Source: Nitrosopumilus sp.
Lineage (GTDB): Archaea; Thermoproteota; Nitrososphaeria; Nitrososphaerales; Nitrosopumilaceae
DNA: 64,000 nucleotides
NCBI GenBank assembly: GCA_965238275.1
Contig: OZ250186.1
Location: 800,001-864,000, forward strand
Reading direction: 5' to 3'
Shown: piece after piece, positions 9,298 through 46,533 of the stretch
How positions within the stretch are numbered: the first letter of the stretch is position 1
Layout: every line of letters begins with the position of its first letter
Notes under the pieces: model-generated
What the model saw: the letters and a program-made list of their open reading frames with translations, nothing else
What the model was told of the DNA's origin: nothing
The model's database searches: none
Made by a program: the position numbers and the translations under genes

Positions 9298-9816
9298 ATG
9301 TCTGCAGGATACCGGCCGGATCAGAGAACCTCTTCTGAGTCACGCGCCGAGGTGATAGTTCGGATGTTTCCATCAGATGCCAACCCTGCAGGCAACGTCT
9401 TTGGCGGCCAGATACTCAAGCACATTGATATGGTGGCAGGGATAGTTGCCCAGAGGCACTCCCGGTCCAACGCCGTCACAGTGTCAATGGACAGCGTCAG
9501 CTTTCTCAAACCGGTTCTTGTCGGAAACGTCCTTACACTGAGTGCCCGGATAAACTACGTCCATAATTCGTCAATGGAGATCGAAGTCAGGACCGAGGCT
9601 GAGGACATAATTACCGGGATCAGCACGGTCACCGGTACGGCATTTGTGACGTTTGTGGCACTTGACGAGAATGGAAAACCCACGCCCGTCCCCGGGCTGA
9701 TCCTCAGTACAGACGAGGACAGGATCAAGTTTGAGGAAGGACGGCTCAGGATGGAAAAACGACTGCAGGCCAGACACTCGGGCCGGGCCACGTCCACCGG
9801 AACAAACCTGCCATAG
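9298..9816 (+). CDS. Acyl-CoA thioesterase (HotDog, YciA-like)
   Basis: DANPAGNVFGGQIL, VTVSMDSVSFLKPV, SSMEIEV, TFVALD. Confidence 0.9.
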   Translation: MSAGYRPDQRTSSESRAEVIVRMFPSDANPAGNVFGGQILKHIDMVAGIVAQRHSRSNAVTVSMDSVSFLKPVLVGNVLTLSARINYVHNSSMEIEVRTEAEDIITGISTVTGTAFVTFVALDENGKPTPVPGLILSTDEDRIKFEEGRLRMEKRLQARHSGRATSTGTNLP

Positions 9817-9836
9817 ATTGGTTTAAGAGAGGCAGC

Positions 9837-10253
9837 ATGTTACACCAGTTAATGTCCGGACAAGACAACAATGCACAATGGGATTCATTGTGGCAGGAGT
9901 ACTCAAAGTCACTTGAAAACTGGAAGACGCTCTTTGAGCAGATGCAGAAGGCAAGCGCCGAGATGCAGTCCAAGTTCAACGAGGTCTGGGAGAAGGCTAC
10001 TGCCGAATCCAGCAACGACACCCTCAAGTCGTTTGGAGAAAACTGGCAGAGGGCCATGACTGAGACCAACATGAGGGCCTTTGAGGGATGGCAGAAGGGC
10101 CTTGGCGATACAGGCAAGTCTTCGTTTGCACAATTTGCCGACAGCTGGCAGAAATCCCTCGGCACGTCGGGACTGGATCAGATGAACGCCTACGGGGAGA
10201 TGATGATGAAGTTTGCCGATACTTGGAATTCGATGTGGCCCCAACCAGGCTAG
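9837..10253 (+). CDS. Trp/Met-rich amphipathic helical protein
   Basis: Periodic W/F pattern (WDSLWQEY, FNEVWEK, FGENWQR, FADSWQK, FADTWNSMW). The true start may be the ATG at 9852. Confidence 0.65.
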   Translation: MLHQLMSGQDNNAQWDSLWQEYSKSLENWKTLFEQMQKASAEMQSKFNEVWEKATAESSNDTLKSFGENWQRAMTETNMRAFEGWQKGLGDTGKSSFAQFADSWQKSLGTSGLDQMNAYGEMMMKFADTWNSMWPQPG

Positions 10254-34038: not shown

Positions 34039-36060
34039 TTACAGTTTCAAAAGCATCCTTACAAGCCGATATAAATTGCCAAAACCCTGCTGGCTCATTC
34101 CGGACATGTATTGAAAATCACTTCTTGTAGTGTAGTTTCCGTTTGTCATGCATGCCGCATAAAGCACTGCAGCTGCAAGCCCGCTTGGTCTTCTGCCCAC
34201 GCCTCCGCCCGTATTGGTAATCCTGTCTGCATATTCCAAAGCCAGCTGTGTTGTTTTGGCGTCAGGACGTATCTGTTTAGAGTGTGCCATGATGTATTTT
34301 TTTATTCTTACGTTGGAATCAAAAGGATTTTTCGAATAAACATTAAGACCGATCTTCCTCTTTGCCTTGATGAAAACCTTGTTGTTCTGACTCACCTTTG
34401 TCAAATAATTGGTTCGTTGCAGATAGTCTATCCTGTTTCGAATTGCCTTTTCTGTTATATCTCCTCCCTCAAGCAGTTCTATTATGCCTTCAAGAGGGAT
34501 TGTTTCTTCCCTGATTATTCCCTTTATTTCATTGTCCAGTGCGCGTTTAATCAGTCTCTTATACCATGGCAATGGAATACCTGCCTGTTTCTGAAGGTAA
34601 TCTAGGCTTTCTAAAATCTGACTCGAAAAATTTGTTTTTGTGTCATGTTCCTGTCTGATTATCTCCTCCCATACCGTCTCCCATTCAAACTCTCCTGCCC
34701 GCACTATCAGTCCCATGTCCTGAATGTCGCCTTCCCTTGATGTCACAGCTTTTAGTAAAAACAGGTCTTCGTTGCAAAGAGTGTACAGATTCAGCCTGCC
34801 AAATTTTTCATGCGTGGCCCTTTTGATCATGCCATCCGAGAGTAGCAGCTTTTTTGCGATTCTGGTTTTGAACAGATCCACGCGGCTTCTTGCAGGATGC
34901 TCAAATATGTCAAACGGGTCTGTCCTGTTGTCATCCTCTGTGAAGCGTGATCTGTTTATGGACGCATATCCGATCTTCTCTAGGGCATTGACAAGCTCCT
35001 TTTCATGCTTCAGATCCGTTACAACGATGTCACAGTCCTTTGTTCTTTGCTTGATTCCTTTTTTTCTCATGTTCTCCCCTCCAAACAGATAGGCATCCAC
35101 TGGAACTGCCAGCTTGTCTCCAACCTCCTCAAAAAGCTCTGGATATGCGTTTGGGAGAGTATACAGTTCTGGGGGCATGTTGTACAGTCTTGCCTTCTCT
35201 TCAAATTCGGCCCTTGGCAGAAACAGCCTGTTGTTGGTTACGGGATTGTTTCTAATGTATCCCTCAATGTCCAGCCAGACATCAGATACCGAGTACAGTC
35301 TTGCCGTCGGCCTTATGTCTGCTGTATCCATCCTGCTTCTGTTCCTGAGATAGAACAACACGCACATTGTAGTCTCACTTTTGTTCTGATCTTTTACGGC
35401 CGCCACTATGGCATGAACCAGTACCTCCTCAATCCTTAACGGGGAATCCTGTCTTGCATAGTAGTCGTGCGTGGTATGGTATTCGATGCCGTAATCCCAA
35501 AACATGGAAAATCCAGTAAGCTCTCCCTTGATTTTTTTGCCTTTCTTGGCCTTCTTCAGCACCCTCAGGCTGTCTTGATAAATTATCTCAGAATCGGGTT
35601 CTATTAATGACAGCTCCTTTTCCGTCTTCAAATATTTTGCAAAAAGAAGAACCGTTTCCCTGTCCTGCCTTATGTGAATCCTGTCGTGGTTTCTCCTCAC
35701 TATTCCCACAGAGTCAAAATCCGATACTGCCCGCTGGACTGTTCTCAGGGAGAGCCCTGTGGCATCCTGCATCTCTTTGATCGTTGCAGGCTCTGTCATG
35801 TTGCACAGTACTGCTTCGTTTGAATCGTGAAGCAGGATCTGGACATCATACTGTTCTGCCACTTTGCTGAATAGTGCATATTTTGGATTGTGGTTCGTTC
35901 TCAAAACACCTCTGTCCCTGTTCAGATAGTTTTGGCTGATCAAATCATTTGCCAGCAGGTTGAGGTGGGACTCGCTTATTCCCAGAATCTGCCCTAGTCT
36001 GGACCTTTCTCCTATTCCCTTGCTCACCTGTTTTAGCAGTCGTATTGATGATTTTTTCAT
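34039..36060 (-). CDS. Multidomain wHTH / nucleotidyltransferase (DUF6036/AbiEii-like) / TFIIB cyclin-repeat protein
   Basis: Two N-terminal wHTH-like segments; YLFGGENM...RTKDCDIVV, LFLLKAVTSREGDIQD; C-terminal GRRPSGLAAAVLYAAC. ATG at 36060 follows a TATA-like tract. Confidence 0.75.
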   Translation of the reverse strand: MKKSSIRLLKQVSKGIGERSRLGQILGISESHLNLLANDLISQNYLNRDRGVLRTNHNPKYALFSKVAEQYDVQILLHDSNEAVLCNMTEPATIKEMQDATGLSLRTVQRAVSDFDSVGIVRRNHDRIHIRQDRETVLLFAKYLKTEKELSLIEPDSEIIYQDSLRVLKKAKKGKKIKGELTGFSMFWDYGIEYHTTHDYYARQDSPLRIEEVLVHAIVAAVKDQNKSETTMCVLFYLRNRSRMDTADIRPTARLYSVSDVWLDIEGYIRNNPVTNNRLFLPRAEFEEKARLYNMPPELYTLPNAYPELFEEVGDKLAVPVDAYLFGGENMRKKGIKQRTKDCDIVVTDLKHEKELVNALEKIGYASINRSRFTEDDNRTDPFDIFEHPARSRVDLFKTRIAKKLLLSDGMIKRATHEKFGRLNLYTLCNEDLFLLKAVTSREGDIQDMGLIVRAGEFEWETVWEEIIRQEHDTKTNFSSQILESLDYLQKQAGIPLPWYKRLIKRALDNEIKGIIREETIPLEGIIELLEGGDITEKAIRNRIDYLQRTNYLTKVSQNNKVFIKAKRKIGLNVYSKNPFDSNVRIKKYIMAHSKQIRPDAKTTQLALEYADRITNTGGGVGRRPSGLAAAVLYAACMTNGNYTTRSDFQYMSGMSQQGFGNLYRLVRMLLKL

Positions 36061-36360
36061 TTTCAGTGTCTTAAGATAGCATATCTTAATATATATCCTA
36101 TTCTGTGACACTGAAATATCCATGTGGCTCCAGAATTGACTGAAACCACCGAGCATTCCAACCCCATGCCAACCGTCGTTTGGACTGTGGCCGTATGCAC
36201 AAGGGGAGGGGATCACGCAAACGACATCAATCATTGCTCATGGTAATGATTGCTAGACGACTGCATACGGTGCTGACGCCCTAGATACGGCAGTCCCGAC
36301 TGCCAGTATCCTCAAAACAAAGGCTTATAATCAATATGTACACTTCCTAACAAGGTTTCA

Positions 36361-37791: not shown

Positions 37792-38050
37792 GATCCTGCA
37801 GGCAAGGATTTTGCGTATGCAGGTTTGGTATGGTGTTGCCTGCCACATTGGGCATAAAGACTCAGATGCACGTACGGACTTGAGAATGTGACCGATGAAA
37901 TACGGTACCGCCAAGATCCTTAATTTTAAAAAAACGTGGTCAACACTGCCTGTCCGTATTGCTTCCAGACCGGCATTGAATACATCATGCAAATTCGTGT
38001 CTGGATGGATAACGCGCATGACGCTGTTTTTTAATATTTTTATACATCCG

Positions 38051-38317
38051 ATGCCGTATACTGTCATGCCACAGGTCAGTACCGCTGATGACATAGAACG
38101 AGAATCAAGGCGGGTCATAGGTGCATTGTACGGCGATGTCAGCGACTTTCGGGTCAACGCAACGTTTCAGATTCCGGAGAAGGGGCCACGGGAGGCATGG
38201 GACGTGCAGGTAAACTTTATGCTCAACTCCCTAAAGTATACCGTCGATCTTGAGATGCAGGAAAAGGACGGCCAAGTAACCAATGCCAGACTAATCGACA
38301 CCATGACACCTCTCTAA
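38051..38317 (+). CDS. Small hypothetical protein (PepSY-like)
   Basis: AWDVQV...YTVDL...DGQV pattern. Start at ATG 38051 or 38066. Confidence 0.55.
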   Translation: MPYTVMPQVSTADDIERESRRVIGALYGDVSDFRVNATFQIPEKGPREAWDVQVNFMLNSLKYTVDLEMQEKDGQVTNARLIDTMTPL

Positions 38318-38336: not shown

Positions 38337-38855
38337 CTATACTGTCAAAATCTTCTTTGCTTCCTTGATCCTTCCAAGCAGGCTGTTGATGTAGGTGTCT
38401 GCAAACCGCTCAAACGTTACATATTCGTTGGCCCTGTCCAAGCTCTTCTGCTTTTTGTACTCTGCTTGCAGCCATTCAAAATCGGACTCCTTGAGGCTGA
38501 TGGCGCAGTTCTGGGAGTCAAACTTTGACTCTATCACGTTGGCGATGAAATAGCTGACAAACTTTGTAAAGCACTTTACCCTGTACTTCTCATAATACTC
38601 CTCCCCAAGCTCCGTATGGTTTGCCTCCAGCCACTGTTGTATATCCGACCTGATGGTCATGGTGTTGTATCGTCCCGAGAGATCAAGCCTGATCCTGTGC
38701 GGCTCCACAGAGTAGTAGCCGCGCCTTACCTCATTCATCATGATGATCAGCGTGCTTGGAAGAAACATTCCGGGATAATTCTTGTCTGTTACATCCTGCA
38801 GTTTTGCAATGATCGCAGGCTTCAGGCCCACGGTGGCATAGCCTTTTCCGGGCAT
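38337..38855 (-). CDS. Hypothetical protein, possible tandem ribbon-helix-helix DNA-binding protein
   Basis: MPGKGYATVGLK, YNTMTIRSD and CAISLKESD each begin a strand-helix-helix unit. Confidence 0.55.
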   Translation of the reverse strand: MPGKGYATVGLKPAIIAKLQDVTDKNYPGMFLPSTLIIMMNEVRRGYYSVEPHRIRLDLSGRYNTMTIRSDIQQWLEANHTELGEEYYEKYRVKCFTKFVSYFIANVIESKFDSQNCAISLKESDFEWLQAEYKKQKSLDRANEYVTFERFADTYINSLLGRIKEAKKILTV

Positions 38856-39003
38856 ACCCAATAGACTGGTCTGATGCTTATATCATTTTCAGATTCCCAT
38901 ACGTATCTGTCCTTGCCAATCCAAATGTGACGTCGCATCCTGTTCGGGTATCGCTCCCCGGCACCATCCATGCTTCTGATTCTGCACCGCAGACGGTTCC
39001 GTA

Positions 39004-39447: not shown

Positions 39448-41034
39448 ATGGCAGAGGTTGACGGATTTGGTGCTGCAATTATCGTATTCATCATAATCAC
39501 GCTTGTAGTGGGCGTCCTTGCAGGCAGGCTGGTAAAAAAGAGCGGCAAGAGGCTGATAATTGCAGGCAAGAGTCTGCCGCTGGTCATGGTAGGAACAATG
39601 CTTGCAGCACAGGCAGTGGACGGAAACTCGTCACTGGGAAACATCTCGCTGGTCTTTCAGTTCGGATTCTGGGCCGGGGCCGTCGTTCCGATAGGTTTGG
39701 GAGTGTGCCTGCTGGTGGTTGCCGCATTCTATGCCAAGCCGCTAAACAAGATGTCGATGATCACCCTGCCTGACTTTTACTACAGAAGATTCGGAAACGG
39801 GGCCGAGGGGATATCCGGCGTGCTCATGATTCTCAGTTTTATCATTCTTGTGGCAGGAAATCTGGCTGCCAGCGGGTTCATTCTAGAGGTCGTATTTGGA
39901 ATAGACTATTTCTGGGGCGTGTTGATCTCATCTTTGGTAGTCGTGGCATATACTATAGCCGGGGGACTGTTTGCCTCTGCATACACGAACCTCTTCCAGG
40001 TGTATCTTGCAATAGGCTCGTTCTGGGCAGCATTCCTGTTCTTTGGCGGCGGCTTTTCAGAGGTGCCGTGGGACGTCATATACAACAACGCTCCGCCGGA
40101 GTTCTTGGATCTCTCGGGACTGTATGATATCGCCAACGGGGCCCTGATCAACTGGGGTGCCATACTTGCACTGGGACTTGGAGACATCATCGCACTTGAC
40201 TTCATGGAGAGGGTGTTCTCTGCCAAGAATCCAAAGACTGCAAGGAGGGGCGCCCTCATGGGAGGCGCACTGACACTCTTTACAGTTATTCCTACCAGCA
40301 TGCTGGGAATCGTGGCATTCTACTATCTTCCCGGAGACACACTGCCTGACTTGGCCCTGCCACTGCTTGCCACGGAGTTCATGCCGTTTGCCATAGGGGC
40401 CTCCATACTGATGGGGGTGATCGGGGCATCCATGTCCACTGCAAGCGGGGGGCTGCTGGCCATATCAAGCGTGGTTTCTCGGAACCTGCTACAGAGGATA
40501 ATCCGGCGCAGGTGGCTGGGCAAGCAGGCCTGGAGCGACGGCAAGCTGCTTGTAACCACGCGGATTGTCATTGCCCCCATGATGATAGCCGGCGCCACCC
40601 TGGCATACTTTGTACCGGCACCGGGGGTCTTTCTCGTGCTGGCATTTGATATCGTCTTTGCCGGAGCCTTGGCGCCTCTCACATTCGGACTGTTCTGGAA
40701 GAAGGCAAACATGCCTGCAGCCATTACCTCCCTGCTTGTAGGATCATTCCTGCGGCTGGCGTTCTTCTTCGTAATTCCACTAGAGTACGACGGAATAGGC
40801 TCAATGATACCGCCTGCAGTCTCGTTTGTACTGTTTATAGTGGTCGCACTTGCAACCCAGAACAGGTATCCAGGAAAGGCAAGGCACGACATAAGGGACT
40901 ATGTTCCGCCCGAGGAGGATATCATTGCCGGCGAGGATCTCAAGCACTTTCAGGAGAGCGACGAGTCGCTGTCCGGCGTACAGAACACAGACACGTCGGG
41001 GCCGGACTCTGGCATGGCGCACAAGAACACCTGA
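39448..41034 (+). CDS. Sodium:solute symporter (SSS family)
   Basis: About 13 TMs, ITLPDFYYRRFG, YTIAGGLFASAYT, ASMSTAS, LFWKKAN. Confidence 0.9.
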   Translation: MAEVDGFGAAIIVFIIITLVVGVLAGRLVKKSGKRLIIAGKSLPLVMVGTMLAAQAVDGNSSLGNISLVFQFGFWAGAVVPIGLGVCLLVVAAFYAKPLNKMSMITLPDFYYRRFGNGAEGISGVLMILSFIILVAGNLAASGFILEVVFGIDYFWGVLISSLVVVAYTIAGGLFASAYTNLFQVYLAIGSFWAAFLFFGGGFSEVPWDVIYNNAPPEFLDLSGLYDIANGALINWGAILALGLGDIIALDFMERVFSAKNPKTARRGALMGGALTLFTVIPTSMLGIVAFYYLPGDTLPDLALPLLATEFMPFAIGASILMGVIGASMSTASGGLLAISSVVSRNLLQRIIRRRWLGKQAWSDGKLLVTTRIVIAPMMIAGATLAYFVPAPGVFLVLAFDIVFAGALAPLTFGLFWKKANMPAAITSLLVGSFLRLAFFFVIPLEYDGIGSMIPPAVSFVLFIVVALATQNRYPGKARHDIRDYVPPEEDIIAGEDLKHFQESDESLSGVQNTDTSGPDSGMAHKNT

Positions 41035-41085
41035 GTCCCTCCCTCCCTCCGTATGTTTTAATATTTTATCGATGATGTGGAATAG

Positions 41086-42777
41086 ATGAAGTATCCTGAC
41101 TTGTTGCCTGCGGACCTTGCACGCGTGGGAACCGCAGAATCAAGAAAGCTCAACCTCATAGTGGGCCGGCTGGTAACTGATGCCGTAAAGACGTCTTTGG
41201 GGCCCAGGGGGATGGAGAAGATCTTCACTGACATCATCGGCGAGGACACCATAACCAAGCACGGCGGCGCGTTTCTGCGAAAAGTCGACGTCGAGCATCC
41301 CGTGGCCAAGGCGATAGTGGAAGGCGTCAACACGGTGGATACGCACGTGGGGGACGGAACAGTCTCTGCTGCAATCCTGATAGGCTCCCTGCTCAAAAAG
41401 GCCGACGGGATGCTCGGGATGGGACTGCAGCCTGCCACAATCATCAGGGGGTATGAGCGGGGGCTGGATCTCGCACTGGAGACGCTTGACGAGGTAAAGA
41501 TGGCCCGGGATGCCTCGGACAGACATGTCCTGGAGCAGCTTGCAGCCTCGTGTCTTGACGGAAAGGCCATAACCAGCCTGGTCTCTGATGCACAGAGACT
41601 CCGGCAGATGATAGTTGATGCATGTTGCCATGTGGCCGATCTTCAGAACGGCTCCATTGATGTTGATGACATCAAGATAGAAGAAAAGCTTGGAAACGCA
41701 AACGACATACAGCTGGTCCGGGGAACCGTGATTGACAAGACCATTGACAATGCGGCAATGCCACGGTGCGTTACTGATGCCAGGATACTGCTCCTCAACG
41801 AGCCGCTTGAGACGATGCGCACCAAGACTGACGATGCCATTGAGATAGACTCCCCGGAGCAGATGTCGCGCTTTCTTGAACAGGAGGTCATCGACGTGCG
41901 CAATATGGTACAGAAGATTATTGGTTGCGGGGCCGGCGTGGTCGTGTCCCGAAAGGGGATAAACGACATTGCACAGGAGTGCCTTGCACAGGCCGGAATA
42001 ATCTCGATAAGAAGGGCCAAGTATAATGATCTCTGGTGGCTTGAAAAGGCCACGGGAGCCTCCGTCTGCAAGAGTCTTGATGCAGTGTCCTCCTCGGAAC
42101 TGGGATATGCGCAGAAGGTGCATGAGAGGGTGGTCGGCGACGAGAGGATGGTATTTGTCGAGGGCTGCAGGAACCCGCGCTCGGTGACCATCCTGCTGCG
42201 TTCAAACTCCAAGAGGTATCTTGACGAGTTCCACCGCAGCGCCCTTAACGCGCTGTTCGTACTGAGGGACTTTATCCAGACCCCGTACGTGGTGCCCGGA
42301 TGCGGCTCCATCGAGGCGGTGCTGGCAGACAGGATCAAGGAGCGATCAGTCGGCATAGGGGACAGGAGCCAGATTGCAGTTGCAATGTTTGCAGACGCCC
42401 TGGAGGAGATCCCGCTGACCCTGGCAAGAAACGTCGGCATGGATCCGCTTGACACCCTGGCTGCCCTCAGATCCCACTATGGGGATTCCCACGGCAGATC
42501 CAGATGGTACGGCATAGACTCGGAGAGGAGGTCAGTCTCTGAGATGCCTGGCACGGGGGTGATAGAGCCCCTTGTGGTCAAACAGCAGGTGCTAAAGACT
42601 GCAGCAGAGGTGTCTGCGATGATCCTCAACGTTGATGACATATTCATGAAGGACGAGATTGACAACACGCACTGCCACATAGACGGAACGGTCCATGCGC
42701 ACCATGACGGCGGGAAGGCGCACAACCACTTTGAGCAGGAGGGGTTGGAGCAGAGGCAGATGCACCACTACTACTAG
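41086..42777 (+). CDS. Divergent group II chaperonin with His-rich C-terminal tail
   Basis: SLGPRGMEK, HPVAK, GDGTVS, IPLTLARNVG, ILNVDD; tail HCHIDGTVHAHHDGGKAHNH...MHHYY. Confidence 0.9.
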   Translation: MKYPDLLPADLARVGTAESRKLNLIVGRLVTDAVKTSLGPRGMEKIFTDIIGEDTITKHGGAFLRKVDVEHPVAKAIVEGVNTVDTHVGDGTVSAAILIGSLLKKADGMLGMGLQPATIIRGYERGLDLALETLDEVKMARDASDRHVLEQLAASCLDGKAITSLVSDAQRLRQMIVDACCHVADLQNGSIDVDDIKIEEKLGNANDIQLVRGTVIDKTIDNAAMPRCVTDARILLLNEPLETMRTKTDDAIEIDSPEQMSRFLEQEVIDVRNMVQKIIGCGAGVVVSRKGINDIAQECLAQAGIISIRRAKYNDLWWLEKATGASVCKSLDAVSSSELGYAQKVHERVVGDERMVFVEGCRNPRSVTILLRSNSKRYLDEFHRSALNALFVLRDFIQTPYVVPGCGSIEAVLADRIKERSVGIGDRSQIAVAMFADALEEIPLTLARNVGMDPLDTLAALRSHYGDSHGRSRWYGIDSERRSVSEMPGTGVIEPLVVKQQVLKTAAEVSAMILNVDDIFMKDEIDNTHCHIDGTVHAHHDGGKAHNHFEQEGLEQRQMHHYY

Positions 42778-42808: not shown

Positions 42809-43558
42809 CTAGAGGATGCTGCCTGGAGTAAGTACGCCGTAGATTATGTGCGCCCCTATCGCAAGGCTGAACGCACCTGCCAGATACCTGGCAATCCTCT
42901 GTACGGATCCCGCCCTTGAGGTAAGGGCAAGCGGCAGGCCGATCAGGTTGCTTATCAGGGTCATGCCGATTATGGAGCCGAGTCCGAATATGAGGATGAA
43001 GCTGATCACCATTCCTGCGCTGTCCAGCGTGACTGCAGTCAGGACGACCAGGCTGCCGCTGCCTGCAAGCCCGTGGATCAGCCCTATGATGTACGACTTG
43101 TGGCTGTGCCTGTGATCCGTGTGACTGTGCTCATGAACATGGAATGTTCCGTCATCGTGCCTGTGGGGGTGCCTGTGCCTGAGGCTGAAGAGCCTCCTCC
43201 TGTCCAGTATCGTGACTGCCCCCAGTACGACAAGCATGACCCCCACTGCCGCCTCAAGGCCGGTAAAGACGTTATCCTGAATCTGTATTGCAAGGACGTA
43301 CACCAGCAGCCCCATTATGATCAAAGTCGTCGTGTGTCCTGCGCCCCACAGTATCCCGATTACTGATGACCTGGCTATCCCTTTCCGGATGACATCCCTG
43401 ATCCGCCCACCACCACCACCACCACCTGTTCTGGCCCCGGACACCCTGGTGGCCACTGCTGCGACATGGTCGGATTCGAACGCGTGCTCCAGTCCTATGG
43501 CAAGCCCCAACCCCAGTGCAAGCAGGGGACTGAAATCAAACAGGTTCTCCAGGGTCAT
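42809..43558 (-). CDS. Nickel/cobalt permease (UreH/NiCoT-like)
   Basis: HAFESDHVAAV, WGAGH, His-rich loop, GLIHGLAGSG, FGLGS. Confidence 0.87.
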   Translation of the reverse strand: MTLENLFDFSPLLALGLGLAIGLEHAFESDHVAAVATRVSGARTGGGGGGGRIRDVIRKGIARSSVIGILWGAGHTTTLIIMGLLVYVLAIQIQDNVFTGLEAAVGVMLVVLGAVTILDRRRLFSLRHRHPHRHDDGTFHVHEHSHTDHRHSHKSYIIGLIHGLAGSGSLVVLTAVTLDSAGMVISFILIFGLGSIIGMTLISNLIGLPLALTSRAGSVQRIARYLAGAFSLAIGAHIIYGVLTPGSIL

Positions 43559-43661: not shown

Positions 43662-44033
43662 CTATGATCCCCTCAGGACATACCTGCTGATTCTTATCGG
43701 GGAGTCAAGGACCAGCACCGTCTCTGAACTACCAGATGCCATGCGGAATACAAGCCTTCTCATGCTCTCCGGAACGCCGATCATGACATTGTCAGGTGAG
43801 ATGAGATCGCATACCTGCTCCCCTATGTCATCTGCACTCGCTCCTGCTGCGATCTGCCTCATGACGTATGCTGCCATTGCCATGACTGCCTCGTTTATGT
43901 TGATGCGTATGCCTCCCTGAATCTTCCTGTTGATGGCCTTTGCCGACTCTATCACCACATCCCGGTCGTACCCTGAAAAGATGATCATTGGCTGCGTGTC
44001 CGGATCGCCTTGAACCTCTGCGCTGAACCTCAT
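43662..44033 (-). CDS. Urease gamma-subunit-like protein (orphan)
   Basis: GIRININEAV...AG...LISPDNVMIGVPE resembles UreA (GLKLNYPEA...DDVMEGVPE), with a divergent N-terminus. Confidence 0.7.
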   Translation of the reverse strand: MRFSAEVQGDPDTQPMIIFSGYDRDVVIESAKAINRKIQGGIRININEAVMAMAAYVMRQIAAGASADDIGEQVCDLISPDNVMIGVPESMRRLVFRMASGSSETVLVLDSPIRISRYVLRGS

Positions 44034-45157
44034 TGCCTGTCCGGAATCTTTGCACGCGGGCCGTCACTGAAGTGGTATGTGTTGCCCGTTCCCCTGTAGT
44101 CGTTGGGCCTTACAGGACTTCCTTCCTTCAGCCCCCTCTTTGTCAGGGAGAGGCCTGCAAGCAGCTCGACTATGAGCCTCTGGCCAAGTCCGGATGTTAT
44201 TCCTCCGTTGTACGAACTGTTGTCGCTGACATCATACGCAGGTGCGACTTCCACCAGATCCATGGCAAACCTGTCCGGATCAAATGATTTTGAGAGGAGC
44301 CTTACCATCCTCATTCCTTCCCTGGATGTCAGGCCGTTGGGTTCAGGCTCGCCGGTACCCGGGGCGTATGCCGGATCAAACGAGTCAATGTCCCAGCTAA
44401 GATACACTGCGTCGGTTCCGTCATTGGCCCTGTCTGCAATCTCCTTTGCAATCATGTCGATTCCAAGCTCCTCTACGTCCAGCATGGTAAACCACTGAAA
44501 GTCCTGGTCAGACATCCACTTGTACAGGTCCGGTCCCGGCCAGTATCCGCGGGGACCTACCAGGGTGTAGTTCTTTCCCTTCATGCAGCCCATCTCCATT
44601 ATCCGCCGGATGTGCGCGCCATGATCGTACTTGTAGCCTGTGAGCCCCTGCGGTGCGCAGTCTGCGTGGGTATCAAAATGAATCATGCCAATGTTTTTGT
44701 ATTTTTTTGCAAACGCCCTGACATTGGCATATGTAATCGAGTGATCTCCTCCAAGCATTACCGGTATGCCCTCCTCGTCGAGCACCTCCTTGACCTTTTT
44801 TGTCATGCGCTTGTGCGACTCTATGACATCTCCGGGGGAGACATGGACGTCCCCGTAATCCACTGTCCTGAACGTTCCAAACGGATCCGCGCCTGTCTCG
44901 ATGTTGAACCTCTCGTACGGGGGGGACGGAATCGTTGATGCGGCGCGAAGTGCCCTCGGGCCGTACCTTGCCCCGGGACGGATCGTGGTCCCAAAATCAA
45001 ACGGTTCGCCAATAACGGCAACGTCAGGCTTTGCCTGCTTTAGCTCCTCGTGCGTTCTTATCCATGGCAGGTGCAAAAACGTATTGATGCCGACAAACGG
45101 CGCAACATCGGCACCCCTGTAATCATCACCATAAAACTCCATGCCCATAACACCCAA
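44030..45157 (-). CDS. Ureohydrolase (agmatinase/guanidino hydrolase family)
   Basis: PFDFGT..RPGARYGP, GGDHSIT, HFDTHAD, WDIDSFDPAYAPGTG, DLVEVAP. Confidence 0.92.
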   Translation of the reverse strand: MGVMGMEFYGDDYRGADVAPFVGINTFLHLPWIRTHEELKQAKPDVAVIGEPFDFGTTIRPGARYGPRALRAASTIPSPPYERFNIETGADPFGTFRTVDYGDVHVSPGDVIESHKRMTKKVKEVLDEEGIPVMLGGDHSITYANVRAFAKKYKNIGMIHFDTHADCAPQGLTGYKYDHGAHIRRIMEMGCMKGKNYTLVGPRGYWPGPDLYKWMSDQDFQWFTMLDVEELGIDMIAKEIADRANDGTDAVYLSWDIDSFDPAYAPGTGEPEPNGLTSREGMRMVRLLSKSFDPDRFAMDLVEVAPAYDVSDNSSYNGGITSGLGQRLIVELLAGLSLTKRGLKEGSPVRPNDYRGTGNTYHFSDGPRAKIPDRQ

Positions 45158-45297
45158 TCGGTAAATTTGATAATTAAGGATTCTAGGTAAACTACGTATG
45201 CTGTATCATTGCTGATTCATGCGGCGTGGTGGGAGGAATTCCGGAATATGTAATGTACGATTTAACTATAAAAATAATATCTGCCAAAATAACATTG

Positions 45298-46533
45298 ATG
45301 ATAGGTGCCTCCAAGAGTTCGACTGACTACATGAACGAGGGCCTGACTGCCGTATACTATAACGAGTTCAAAAAGGCCGTATCAAAGTTTGACCGGGCAG
45401 TCTCAATTGATCCGGAAAATATCGTGGCGCAGCTTCACAAGGGCATTACGCTTGGCAGGATTGGCCGTCACAAGGATGCCGTGGCATGCTTTGATGCAGT
45501 GCTTGATGCCGATCCCAAGAATCTTGATGCGCTGTACAACCGCGGCCTGTACCTGGGGAGAATGGGGAAGTACGAGGATGCCATACGCTGTCTTGCCGAA
45601 TCCCTCCAAGTCGATCCAGGATTCCTGGACTCCCTGACTGAGACCGGGGCGTGCCTTGGCAGGATGGGAAGAAACACGGAGGCCCTGGAGATGATTGAGC
45701 GTGCGCTGTATATCGATCCGAAATACTCTGCTGCATTATACAACAAGAGCCTGATTCTGGGACGGCTGGGCAGGAAGGCTGAGGCAATGTCACTCCTGCA
45801 GGACGCGATCGAGGAGGATTCCAGACAGTCTGATGCAGTCTATCGGGAGGGACAGAAGCTTACCCGGGAGGGAAAGCACGAGGAGGCGATAAGACTGTAC
45901 ACCCGCGCCCTGGAGATTGACGACAAGAATACCAGGGCACTGGTCGCAAAGGGATGGACTCTTGACTTTGCAGGGTTCTCAAACAAGGACGTATTCGTAT
46001 TCTATGACAAGGCGCTGGAGGCAGACCCGCATTGCACCGATGCCTGGCTGTACAAGGGACTGGTGCTGGACAGGACGGGCATGTATAAGAGGGCAGTCGA
46101 GTGCTTTGATCGCATCTTGGAGTATGATCCGCAAAACATCCGGGCGCTTTACAGCAAGGGCATATCGCTCTTCTCGCTCAAACGCTTTGGGGCTGCGCGG
46201 TTCTACTGCGAGTGCGCCCTGGACGTGGATCCCAAGAACATCCGGGCCGTATGCAGCATGGTGTGGCTTTTGGAGCATGCAAAAAAATACAACGAGGCGC
46301 TGGCCTACTGCGAGCAGGCGCTGAAGATCAATCCGGACTATGTCTATGCCGTAAGCTACAAGGGAAAGTTGCTCATGCTGCTCAAGCGGTACGCCGAGTC
46401 CCTGGAGTGGTACGACAAGACACTGGCCCTTGCGCCTGACAACCAGACTGCAATATACCACAGGAACATGGTTGTTGATGCAATCGAGAAGGCCAAGAGG
46501 GATTCTGCACCCAGAAGGTTCCCAAGACTATAA
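45298..46533 (+). CDS. Tetratricopeptide repeat protein
   Basis: About 11 tandem 34-aa TPRs (ALYNRG...EDAI.C...L..DP). Confidence 0.92.
   Translation: MIGASKSSTDYMNEGLTAVYYNEFKKAVSKFDRAVSIDPENIVAQLHKGITLGRIGRHKDAVACFDAVLDADPKNLDALYNRGLYLGRMGKYEDAIRCLAESLQVDPGFLDSLTETGACLGRMGRNTEALEMIERALYIDPKYSAALYNKSLILGRLGRKAEAMSLLQDAIEEDSRQSDAVYREGQKLTREGKHEEAIRLYTRALEIDDKNTRALVAKGWTLDFAGFSNKDVFVFYDKALEADPHCTDAWLYKGLVLDRTGMYKRAVECFDRILEYDPQNIRALYSKGISLFSLKRFGAARFYCECALDVDPKNIRAVCSMVWLLEHAKKYNEALAYCEQALKINPDYVYAVSYKGKLLMLLKRYAESLEWYDKTLALAPDNQTAIYHRNMVVDAIEKAKRDSAPRRFPRL

Follow-up and report, generated by a model that had tools for sequence, protein, structure and literature searches.

An "Hsp60 homolog" conserved in the urease loci of Nitrosocaldus and Nitrososphaerales has been proposed to stabilize urease; the searched text of that paper states that it was not found in Nitrosopumilales, and mentions neither histidine, nickel nor arginase (Abby 2018, PMC5797428). 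Excerpts of a review describe histidine-rich C-termini in mycobacterial GroEL paralogues and propose that they bind metal or assist metalloproteins (PMC5904260). According to passages of a third paper, nickel-dependent guanidine hydrolase needs the HypA/HypB-like loaders GhaA and GhaB in Escherichia coli, nickel loading of the comammox guanidinase is unexplained, and no guanidine-degradation genes were found in ammonia-oxidising archaea (Palatinszky 2024, PMC11410670). An SSS transporter clustered with an "agmatinase" gene in one soil clade is reported in the available section of a 2024 paper (PMC11131427). Here we describe a chaperonin gene at positions 41086..42777 of a 64,000-nucleotide stretch of a Nitrosopumilus sp. 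genome (GCA_965238275.1, contig OZ250186.1, positions 800,001 to 864,000; hereafter the window), whose product ends in a conserved histidine-rich tail and whose occurrence follows that of an arginase-family ureohydrolase. No description of a histidine-tailed group II chaperonin, or of the chaperonin of this gene module, was found in the literature searched, which did not cover subscription journals, and the family appears to be undescribed so far. We read the protein, with a rough probability of 0.45, as a module-specific chaperonin subunit with a putative nickel-binding tail that would aid folding or metal loading of the ureohydrolase.

Archaeal thermosomes such as KS-1 alpha and the Methanococcus maripaludis chaperonin (Cpn) share with this protein the fold with a built-in lid, the GDGT loop, Lys160, and the G-x-G loop. 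Unlike in thermosomes, both catalytic aspartates are replaced, three additional fixed histidines lie near the pocket motifs, and a histidine-rich extension takes the place of the Gly/Met tail. Thermosomes are universal, whereas the tail-bearing chaperonin is accessory (76 of 301 genomes) and is encoded within a metabolic gene module. Like the "Hsp60 homolog", it is a specialised chaperonin copy that accompanies urease genes in ammonia-oxidising archaea, but the two differ in length, motifs, tail, sequence identity, and position. With mycobacterial GroEL1 it shares the replacement of a Gly/Met tail by a histidine-rich one; however, GroEL1 is a group I chaperonin with a low-complexity histidine run, whereas the archaeal protein belongs to group II and has a conserved 43-residue motif. 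We know of neither a loss of the catalytic aspartates nor a linkage to a nickel enzyme module for GroEL1.

UreE, HypB, SlyD, and Helicobacter HspA bear histidine-rich segments and are linked in the genome to a nickel enzyme and a nickel permease. The chaperonin resembles this class of nickel metallochaperones in its His/Cys-rich terminal segment and in its linkage to both a nickel enzyme and a putative nickel permease. The carrier in that class is a small metallochaperone, a GTPase or a co-chaperonin, whereas here it is a 60-kDa chaperonin subunit, and no sequence relation was found between it and UreE, HypB, SlyD or HspA. GhaA and GhaB put nickel into an arginase-family enzyme; no HypA/HypB-type pair occurs among the genes of the present module, and the candidate loader in it would be the chaperonin.

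Chaperonin identity and the ATP site

The gene, its notable sites, and the canonical subunit used as a reference are as follows; site frequencies refer to 34 main-clade sequences, on which the census of sites and the regional conservation values are based.

41055..41068, forward strand: AT-rich TTTTAATATTTTAT box read from the sequence, 18–31 nucleotides before the ATG of the chaperonin, a possible archaeal TATA-like promoter element.
41086..42777, forward strand: tail-bearing group II chaperonin paralogue, ATG start, 563 amino acids.
41260..41262, forward strand: codon of His59, in place of the first catalytic aspartate; His in 34 of 34 orthologues.
41344..41346, forward strand: codon of His87 (VDTHVGDG; canonical VDNEVGDG); His in 33 of 34.
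42232..42249, forward strand: His383 to Asn388 (HRSALN); His383 in 34 of 34, Asn388 in 33 of 34.
42298..42309, forward strand: GCGS replacing the GGGA nucleotide loop; G405 and G407 invariant, position 406 variable (G/A/S/C).
42646..42774, forward strand: 43-residue C-terminal extension with HCH, HAH, and HNH pairs and a terminal HHYY.
24752..26368, forward strand: canonical thermosome subunit, comparison reference (PF00118, E = 8.8e-188).

The open reading frame (ORF) matched Cpn60_TCP1 (Pfam PF00118) over residues 30–522 (E = 1.4e-135, 453 bits) and thermosome_alpha (NF041082) at 497.8 bits, above the cut-off of 450; its score with TIGR02339 was 485 bits, below the cut-off of 671. The genome, a single contig of 2.22 Mb, contains three PF00118 genes, the other two scoring about 625–629 bits. 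Identity to the canonical subunit is 40% over 506 columns (BLASTP) and to solved thermosomes 36%–38%; both the alignment to thermosomes and the structure comparison show few insertions or deletions. The AlphaFold2 model (predicted local distance difference test score [pLDDT] 85.5, predicted template modelling score [pTM] 0.81) was matched by Foldseek to M. maripaludis Cpn 3rus_A (template modelling scores 0.86/0.94, root-mean-square deviation 2.4) and displays equatorial, intermediate, and apical domains with a helical lid. The protein is a full-length group II chaperonin, and its body keeps the three-domain fold and the lid.

The first-pass annotation of the window had listed four motif changes in this ORF and read them as the loss of both catalytic aspartates. 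All four are present in the alignment to the canonical subunit (TNDGATIL to TKHGGAFL, GDGTTS to GDGTVS, RSIHDAL to RSALNAL, and GGGAPE to GCGSIE). In gap-free blocks, His59 falls on Asp64 and Asn388 on Asp393 of Thermococcus KS-1 alpha (1q3r), which we take to be the pair that activates water for ATP hydrolysis; the PDB title "Lidless D386A Mm-cpn in the pre-hydrolysis ATP-bound state" agrees with a hydrolytic role of these aspartates. Both replacements are fixed across the whole clade. His87 and His383 are further fixed histidines that had not been listed earlier, the latter in the context EFHR where canonical subunits have EVDR. In the phosphate loops, GDGT is kept, with a variable residue after it; Asp90, Thr92, Gly405, and Gly407 were found in all 34 sequences and Lys160 in 33.

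The C-terminal tail

Replacement of the glycine-rich end, also claimed at first pass, is evident from the comparison: the canonical subunit at 24752 ends ...VSGGPGGGGPMG, and the paralogue continues after the common ...NVDDIF with MKDEIDNTHCHIDGTVHAHHDGGKAHNHFEQEGLEQRQMHHYY. The reference subunit has a short Gly-rich tail, and the other canonical subunit of the genome a long one of the GGM type. The extension holds ten histidines and one cysteine in its 43 residues. Seven of the histidines are invariant or nearly so across the class sample; in 35 aligned tails H529, H531, D533, G534, H537, H539, H546, G553, Q556, R557, and H560 do not vary, and Cys530 is not conserved.

No other part of the protein is as well conserved as the tail, which has a mean majority-residue frequency of 0.90, against 0.58–0.85 for the body regions, and 21 of 43 columns invariant. 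Second come the pocket segments 41–100 and 361–400 (0.80–0.87), followed by the apical domain (0.74) and the first intermediate segment (0.58). Such high conservation within the body suggests that the former ATP pocket has taken on a new use and has not simply decayed. In the relatives compared, 35–42 of the 43 tail residues are identical to those of the window copy, and third codon positions agree at only 9–18 of 43 in seven AT-rich relatives and at 27 and 32 in two GC-rich ones. Because the amino acids are kept while the third positions diverge, the peptide must be under purifying selection; together with the column conservation, this confirms that the tail is real and strongly constrained.

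The extension contains three HxH pairs, the first two parted by a D-G-T turn. These two would fit a small hairpin with four histidines on one face; the AlphaFold2 model has a pLDDT under 50 from residue 524 to the C-terminus and shows weak indications of strands at 526–530 and 536–539. A complex prediction of the ureohydrolase with the 43-residue tail, run with no controls, gave scores of 0.00 and 0.00 and speaks neither for nor against binding.

A scan of all six-frame ORFs of at least 50 amino acids in the 2.2-Mb genome found H.H.DGT.H.H twice, once in the tail and once in the cytoplasmic His-rich loop of the adjoining NicO-like permease, which thus carries the same HxHxDGTxHxH unit. The relaxed form H.H..G..H.H is present in 39 of 53 orthologues of this permease. 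The loop varies among orthologues and the chaperonin tail is nearly invariant. Of 49 short-protein matches with the full-length tail, 35 carry PF00118 and 14 are pieces of 43–93 residues; all 49 are consistent with fragments of the tail chaperonin. A profile of the tail searched against 1.84 billion representative proteins returned 20 matches at E ≤ 0.001, 17 of which are tails or fragments of the same family. Matches also came from a repeat protein (P0170), limited to the distal half of the tail; from a 2,392-residue protein with 19 tandem THTHEDGTTHSHP-type units (THTHxDGTxHSH; P0172); and from a 1,108-residue protein with one THTHxDGTxHSH unit ahead of a C-terminal membrane anchor (P0185). 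The bare HxHxDGTxHxH unit is carried by P0172 and P0185, not by P0170. Its recurrence in unrelated proteins points to a self-contained element, consistent with metal binding.

P0172 and P0185 suggest that a free-standing metal-binding unit may exist, a candidate by sequence. In addition, a 399-residue fragment of a tail-bearing chaperonin (P0179) carries a further His-rich stretch, about 45 residues long, inserted in its apical domain.

Conservation and order of evolutionary changes

A word-indexed search returned hundreds of orthologues of 558–564 amino acids, which, where named, are thermosome subunits of Nitrosopumilaceae. From species-representative genomes 78 chaperonin loci were taken; 75 of them yielded frames of 546–626 residues, the remaining three (L040, L043, and L070) running off the contig end, and every recovered C-terminus bears the tail. 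Two candidate features of these frames were rejected: the insertions of the 607–626-residue orthologues are Gly/Ala/Arg-rich and not His-rich, and a 1,122-residue frame in genome G291 that resembled a fusion is an artefact of 68% GC content, its upstream part being an Arg-rich wrong-frame read of the transporter gene.

In a quick maximum-likelihood tree with an arbitrary root, the 34 main-clade sequences form one clade with a support of 100 (SH-like approximate likelihood-ratio test). Seven distant copies, from Nitrososphaeraceae and two other genera of Nitrosopumilaceae, bear a related tail of the form T-H-T-H-x-D-G-T-x-H-S-H ... H-D-H ... Q-R-P-x-H-H-Y-Y. Position 59 in these copies is Asp in four, Ser in two, and Asn in one, and position 388 is Asp in six and Ser in one, so that three of the seven retain both catalytic aspartates. 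The tail is probably older than the change in the ATP site, because basal copies bear it with one or both aspartates kept. Since it occurs on copies with and without the aspartate pair, the tail is the hallmark of the family. Relaxation of the hydrolytic residues occurred repeatedly; in the large marine and freshwater clade they were replaced once, and the replacements were then fixed.

Distribution and co-occurrence with the ureohydrolase

A sample of 301 genomes, drawn evenly from the class, was searched three times, with a 52-residue tail query, for the hydrolase orthologue (E ≤ 1e-100), and for the urease alpha subunit. The tail was found in 76 genomes, the hydrolase orthologue in 80, both in 75, and urease alpha in 124. 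These counts include an unpublished genome (G282) in which all three are present; without it, the tail occurs in 75, the hydrolase in 79, and urease in 123 of 300 genomes, and tail and hydrolase together in 74. The first-pass annotation had tied the chaperonin to the neighbouring ureohydrolase in the window, and the 75 genomes with both extend this link past the window genome.

The tail chaperonin occurs in Nitrosopumilaceae and Nitrososphaeraceae. Its presence is patchy within genera and follows that of the hydrolase: tail and hydrolase were found in 13 and 14 of 66 genomes of the window's genus, and in 6 and 6 of 20, 4 and 4 of 13, and 7 and 7 of 27 genomes of other genera. In the Nitrososphaeraceae-like family, tail and hydrolase occur in exactly the same genomes (20 and 20 of 39). 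The sole genome with the tail alone (G207) has only a 64-residue remnant frame.

This remnant lies on the reverse strand at about 9794–9985 of locus L095 (G207:C1:324000-343999); a NicO-like gene is its neighbour, and the genome has no hydrolase orthologue. At another locus (L094, genome G283) the hydrolase is kept, the chaperonin is gone, and the transporter gene is down to 86 aligned residues; the two loci look like stages of module decay. The hydrolase orthologue of genome G256 has one in-frame TAG, possibly a sequencing error or the mark of a pseudogene.

The gene module

The genes that recur with the chaperonin, as arranged in the window, are listed below together with a second arginase-family gene of the same genome.

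37895..38317, forward strand: small conserved protein (orf140); orthologues of about 83–100 amino acids, so the true start is probably later.
38337..38861, reverse strand: conserved 174-residue protein (orf174), module member.
39448..41034, forward strand: sodium:solute symporter family (SSF) transporter (PF00474), 51 nucleotides upstream of the chaperonin.
42809..43558, reverse strand: NicO-like (Ni/Co permease-like) membrane protein with the His-rich loop ...HRHDDGTFHVHEH..., convergent with the chaperonin.
43662..44033, reverse strand: urease-gamma-like protein of 123 amino acids (PF00547, E = 1.7e-6, 28.7 bits against a cut-off of 23.9).
44030..45157, reverse strand: arginase-family ureohydrolase (PF00491, E = 1.4e-81), start probably at an ATG near 45148.
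45226..46533, forward strand: tetratricopeptide repeat (TPR) protein of the module, 435 amino acids.
L103:1468-2343, reverse strand (about 1832476–1833351 of G000:C1, at 1.83 Mb): housekeeping agmatinase (TIGR01230).

Within 8 kb of the 48 chaperonin loci that have full flanks, the SSF gene was found in 47, orf140 in 45, the arginase-family hydrolase in 44, the NicO-like and TPR genes in 42 each, orf174 in 40, and the urease-gamma-like gene in 36. Gene order differs from locus to locus; in 46 of 72 loci the SSF gene lies directly upstream of the chaperonin in the same orientation. Four RNA libraries of a single study gave contigs over small parts only of a 5.8-kb stretch here: all four include part of the SSF gene and three include pieces of the hydrolase, with a 53-nucleotide match at 90%–95% in the fourth; parts without coverage carry no information. 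The chaperonin is covered by a 207-nucleotide contig without mismatch in one library, which is weak evidence of expression because DNA carry-over is possible.

The module hydrolase scored 159.1 bits, below the agmatinase equivalog cut-off of 174.3. The genome's other arginase-family gene, beside that of threonine-tRNA ligase, scored 218.5 bits with TIGR01230, over the cut-off, and encodes the housekeeping agmatinase. The name "agmatinase SpeB" was rejected for the module enzyme, since its score is under the cut-off and the true SpeB is encoded elsewhere. Its nearest relatives in the PDB are guanidinobutyrase 3nio (178 bits) and the nickel-dependent guanidine hydrolase of Synechocystis (7esr and 7oi1; 170 bits with 7esr). 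The enzyme is highly conserved: median identity to the window copy across loci is 91%, versus 61% for the chaperonin, and 75%–84% of residues are shared even in other families of the class. The start of the urease-gamma-like gene overlaps the stop of the hydrolase gene, and the genome's true ureA lies elsewhere (G000:C1:218559-218912); the diverged gamma-like protein may belong to the hydrolase as a subunit or may tether it.

The window copy of the permease had no Pfam match, and is therefore called NicO-like rather than NicO; of 12 orthologues, six matched PF03824 (three over the cut-off) and three matched DsbD_2. The TPR protein is variable, with a median identity of 53% and a minimum of 27%. 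The 174-residue protein matched no Pfam or NCBIfam family; weak Atlas leads (0.85) point to a ribbon-helix-helix protein, the Atlas matches are restricted to Nitrososphaerota, and the protein may be a regulator. Farther upstream, at 34039–36234 on the reverse strand, is a 731-residue ORF with a TFIIB repeat at the C-terminus, a weak N-terminal HVO_A0261-type match, and a weak match to the nucleotidyltransferase-like DUF6036.

Proposed function

The first-pass interpretation, an ATPase-impaired subunit that displays nickel within the chamber, is supported in part. In the reading we favour, the chaperonin would be a third, specialised group II subunit serving an accessory urea/guanidino-nitrogen module of ammonia-oxidising archaea, a unit of SSF transporter, ureohydrolase, urease-gamma-like, NicO-like, and TPR proteins and two small proteins that in many lineages is joined to the urease operon. 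Chaperonin C-termini project into the folding chamber. With the body and its lid retained, the 43-residue tail would likewise extend into the chamber and form a histidine-rich metal site. The metal would most likely be Ni(II), supplied by the neighbouring permease; nickel is plausible in view of the adjoining NicO-like protein with the same motif and the association with urease. Since His and Asn have taken the place of the aspartate pair in the Nitrosopumilaceae clade, the subunit probably binds nucleotide without hydrolysing it, or its pocket takes another ligand. It would probably join the two canonical subunits in mixed rings, comparable to the CCT ring, where subunits with weak hydrolysis are tolerated. 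Its role may be to hold a new metalloenzyme subunit and supply its binuclear metal centre, with the ureohydrolase as the best-correlated client and urease as the second. The ureohydrolase is favoured because of its tight co-inheritance with the chaperonin and because many urease-bearing genomes do without the chaperonin.

A bolder version of this proposal, which we consider rather doubtful, is that in marine ammonia oxidisers the folding cage has become a metallochaperone whose subunit has given up ATP hydrolysis. The former pocket (His59, His87, His383, and Asn388) and the tail would jointly take nickel from the NicO-like permease and build the binuclear centre of a hitherto uncharacterised nickel-dependent ureohydrolase inside the chamber, in place of HypA/HypB-type GTPases. 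With the help of urease, guanidine or guanidino nitrogen could then be oxidised, a capacity at present regarded as missing in these archaea.

Several observations weigh against the favoured reading. Five hydrolase-bearing genomes (G283, G070, G173, G191, and G265, the last three from one family) lack the tail chaperonin; they are 97%–99% complete, and all their PF00118 genes score as canonical (614–643 bits). The hydrolase can thus exist without the chaperonin, and any dependence on it is not absolute. The three genomes of one family even have an intact-looking locus of arginase-family hydrolase, NicO-like, UreABC, and UreEFGD genes (L092 and L093). Because the sampled genomes include relatives, the co-occurrence counts suggest more independent events than there were. 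The low pLDDT of the tail lends no structural support to a defined site. The motifs of the hydrolase, which we take to be arginase-family metal ligands, are the ordinary set and cannot tell nickel from manganese. Metal binding, the identity of the metal, loss of ATPase activity, and the oligomeric state are all things that we infer. Finally, urease is favoured as the client by the recurrent joining of the module to its operon, by the recruitment of another chaperonin to urease loci, by the five hydrolase-only genomes, and by a general role of the permease.

Relation to urease loci

The strongest alternative is that the chaperonin is specific to urease maturation or stabilization, folding or assembling UreABC or feeding nickel to UreDEFG, with the hydrolase only a neighbour in the locus. 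We consider it unlikely, though urease is an established nickel enzyme and the two are often found together. Urease alpha (ureC) was present in 75 of the 76 tail-bearing genomes, the exception being G237, an assembly of 60 contigs that is 96% complete. A link to a nickel enzyme in other genomes had been set beforehand as a test, and it was found here, along with linkage to putative nickel uptake through the NicO-like neighbour. The chaperonin also adjoins ureD or ureA in several loci. In L091 the order is chaperonin-UreDGFE/UreABC-orf140-orf174-SSF-TPR-hydrolase-gamma-like; in L087, L089, and L096 the chaperonin is divergent from UreABC; and in L104 the entire module lies between UreEFG and UreABC. 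These arrangements fit a urease client equally well.

A different chaperonin gene, encoding a tail-less paralogue of 516–518 amino acids, lies between ureC and ureE in three loci:

L097:6796-8349, reverse strand: tail-less chaperonin paralogue.
L098:11685-13238, forward strand: tail-less chaperonin paralogue.
L099:6629-8176, reverse strand: tail-less chaperonin paralogue.

These genes occur in genomes without the module. Their products are 29%–31% identical to the canonical thermosome, have the canonical SNDG, GDGTTT, and GGGAAE motifs, and lack a histidine tail. By sequence and position, they correspond to the published "Hsp60 homolog", a proposed urease stabilizer in the searched text of its description (PMC5797428). 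Urease loci have thus recruited a chaperonin twice, which also favours urease as the client.

The distribution argues otherwise. Among the 124 urease-bearing genomes, 49 have no tail chaperonin, and its occurrence matches that of the hydrolase much more closely than that of urease. Nitrosopumilus-type operons with UreEFGD manage without a local chaperonin, none being found in the urease operons of the module-less genomes (L100 and L101). In the window genome, UreCBA and UreEFGD lie with two large SSS transporters at 214–224 kb, about 620 kb from the module; there urease has its own UreE, UreF, UreG, and UreD, and the chaperonin keeps its place beside the hydrolase and SSF genes. A NicO-like gene is located beside ureD in the module-less operon of L101, so the permease is best seen as the nickel supply of the urease locus at large and is not specific evidence for nickel in the ureohydrolase.

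Other explanations

It is distinctly unlikely that the protein mainly stores or buffers nickel for the enzymes of the module, its many tails sequestering the metal in an ATPase-dead ring or a non-ring oligomer that has no folding role. Histidine-rich nickel stores of ureolytic bacteria include Hpn and the HspA tail of Helicobacter, and the lost aspartate pair, the ten histidines and one cysteine of the tail, and the linkage to a permease with a common motif would all suit such a function. But the conservation of the apical and lid regions (0.74) and of the whole fold is unexpected for a mere carrier of tails, and basal copies combine the tail with one or both catalytic aspartates. Moreover, conservation of the non-histidine tail residues (EQEGLEQRQM) equals that of the histidines, suggesting a defined fold or partner.

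Such a partner could be the TPR protein of the module, if the tail were chiefly a docking peptide; alternatively, the tail might bind Cu, Zn or Co. The C-termini of Hsp70 and Hsp90 dock TPR co-chaperones, the TPR gene is present in 42 of the 48 full loci, and both the C-terminal HHYY and the QR pair are kept throughout the class. As for the metal, NicO-type permeases also carry Co, and ammonia-oxidising archaea use much Cu. Docking is hard to reconcile with C-termini inside the chamber, where a 435-residue TPR protein could hardly reach them, and with the contrast between the poorly conserved TPR protein and the nearly invariant tail; we give these possibilities low odds. A decaying, functionless thermosome duplicate, to which the lost catalytic residues and the faster divergence relative to the hydrolase might point, can be set aside for practical purposes, given the long frames at 75 of 78 loci, remnants limited, among the 76 tail-bearing genomes, to G207 and a second copy in G140, replacement residues that are themselves fixed, strong purifying selection on tail and pocket, and the exact, if weak, RNA-library match.

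Implications

The published absence of urease-linked chaperonins in Nitrosopumilales needs correction, since a different one is present there. The accessory module, found in about a quarter of the sampled genomes, brings together a transporter, a ureohydrolase other than SpeB, and urease, and points to an unrecognised route from guanidino nitrogen to ammonia. If the favoured reading, a module-specific chaperonin subunit aiding the ureohydrolase, is true, the family would provide a natural group II subunit in which both catalytic aspartates have been lost, a state then maintained by selection, and a metal-binding tail lies in the chamber; it would be a natural experiment on a non-hydrolysing member of the ring. 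It would also represent a new way of loading a binuclear nickel (or other metal) centre.

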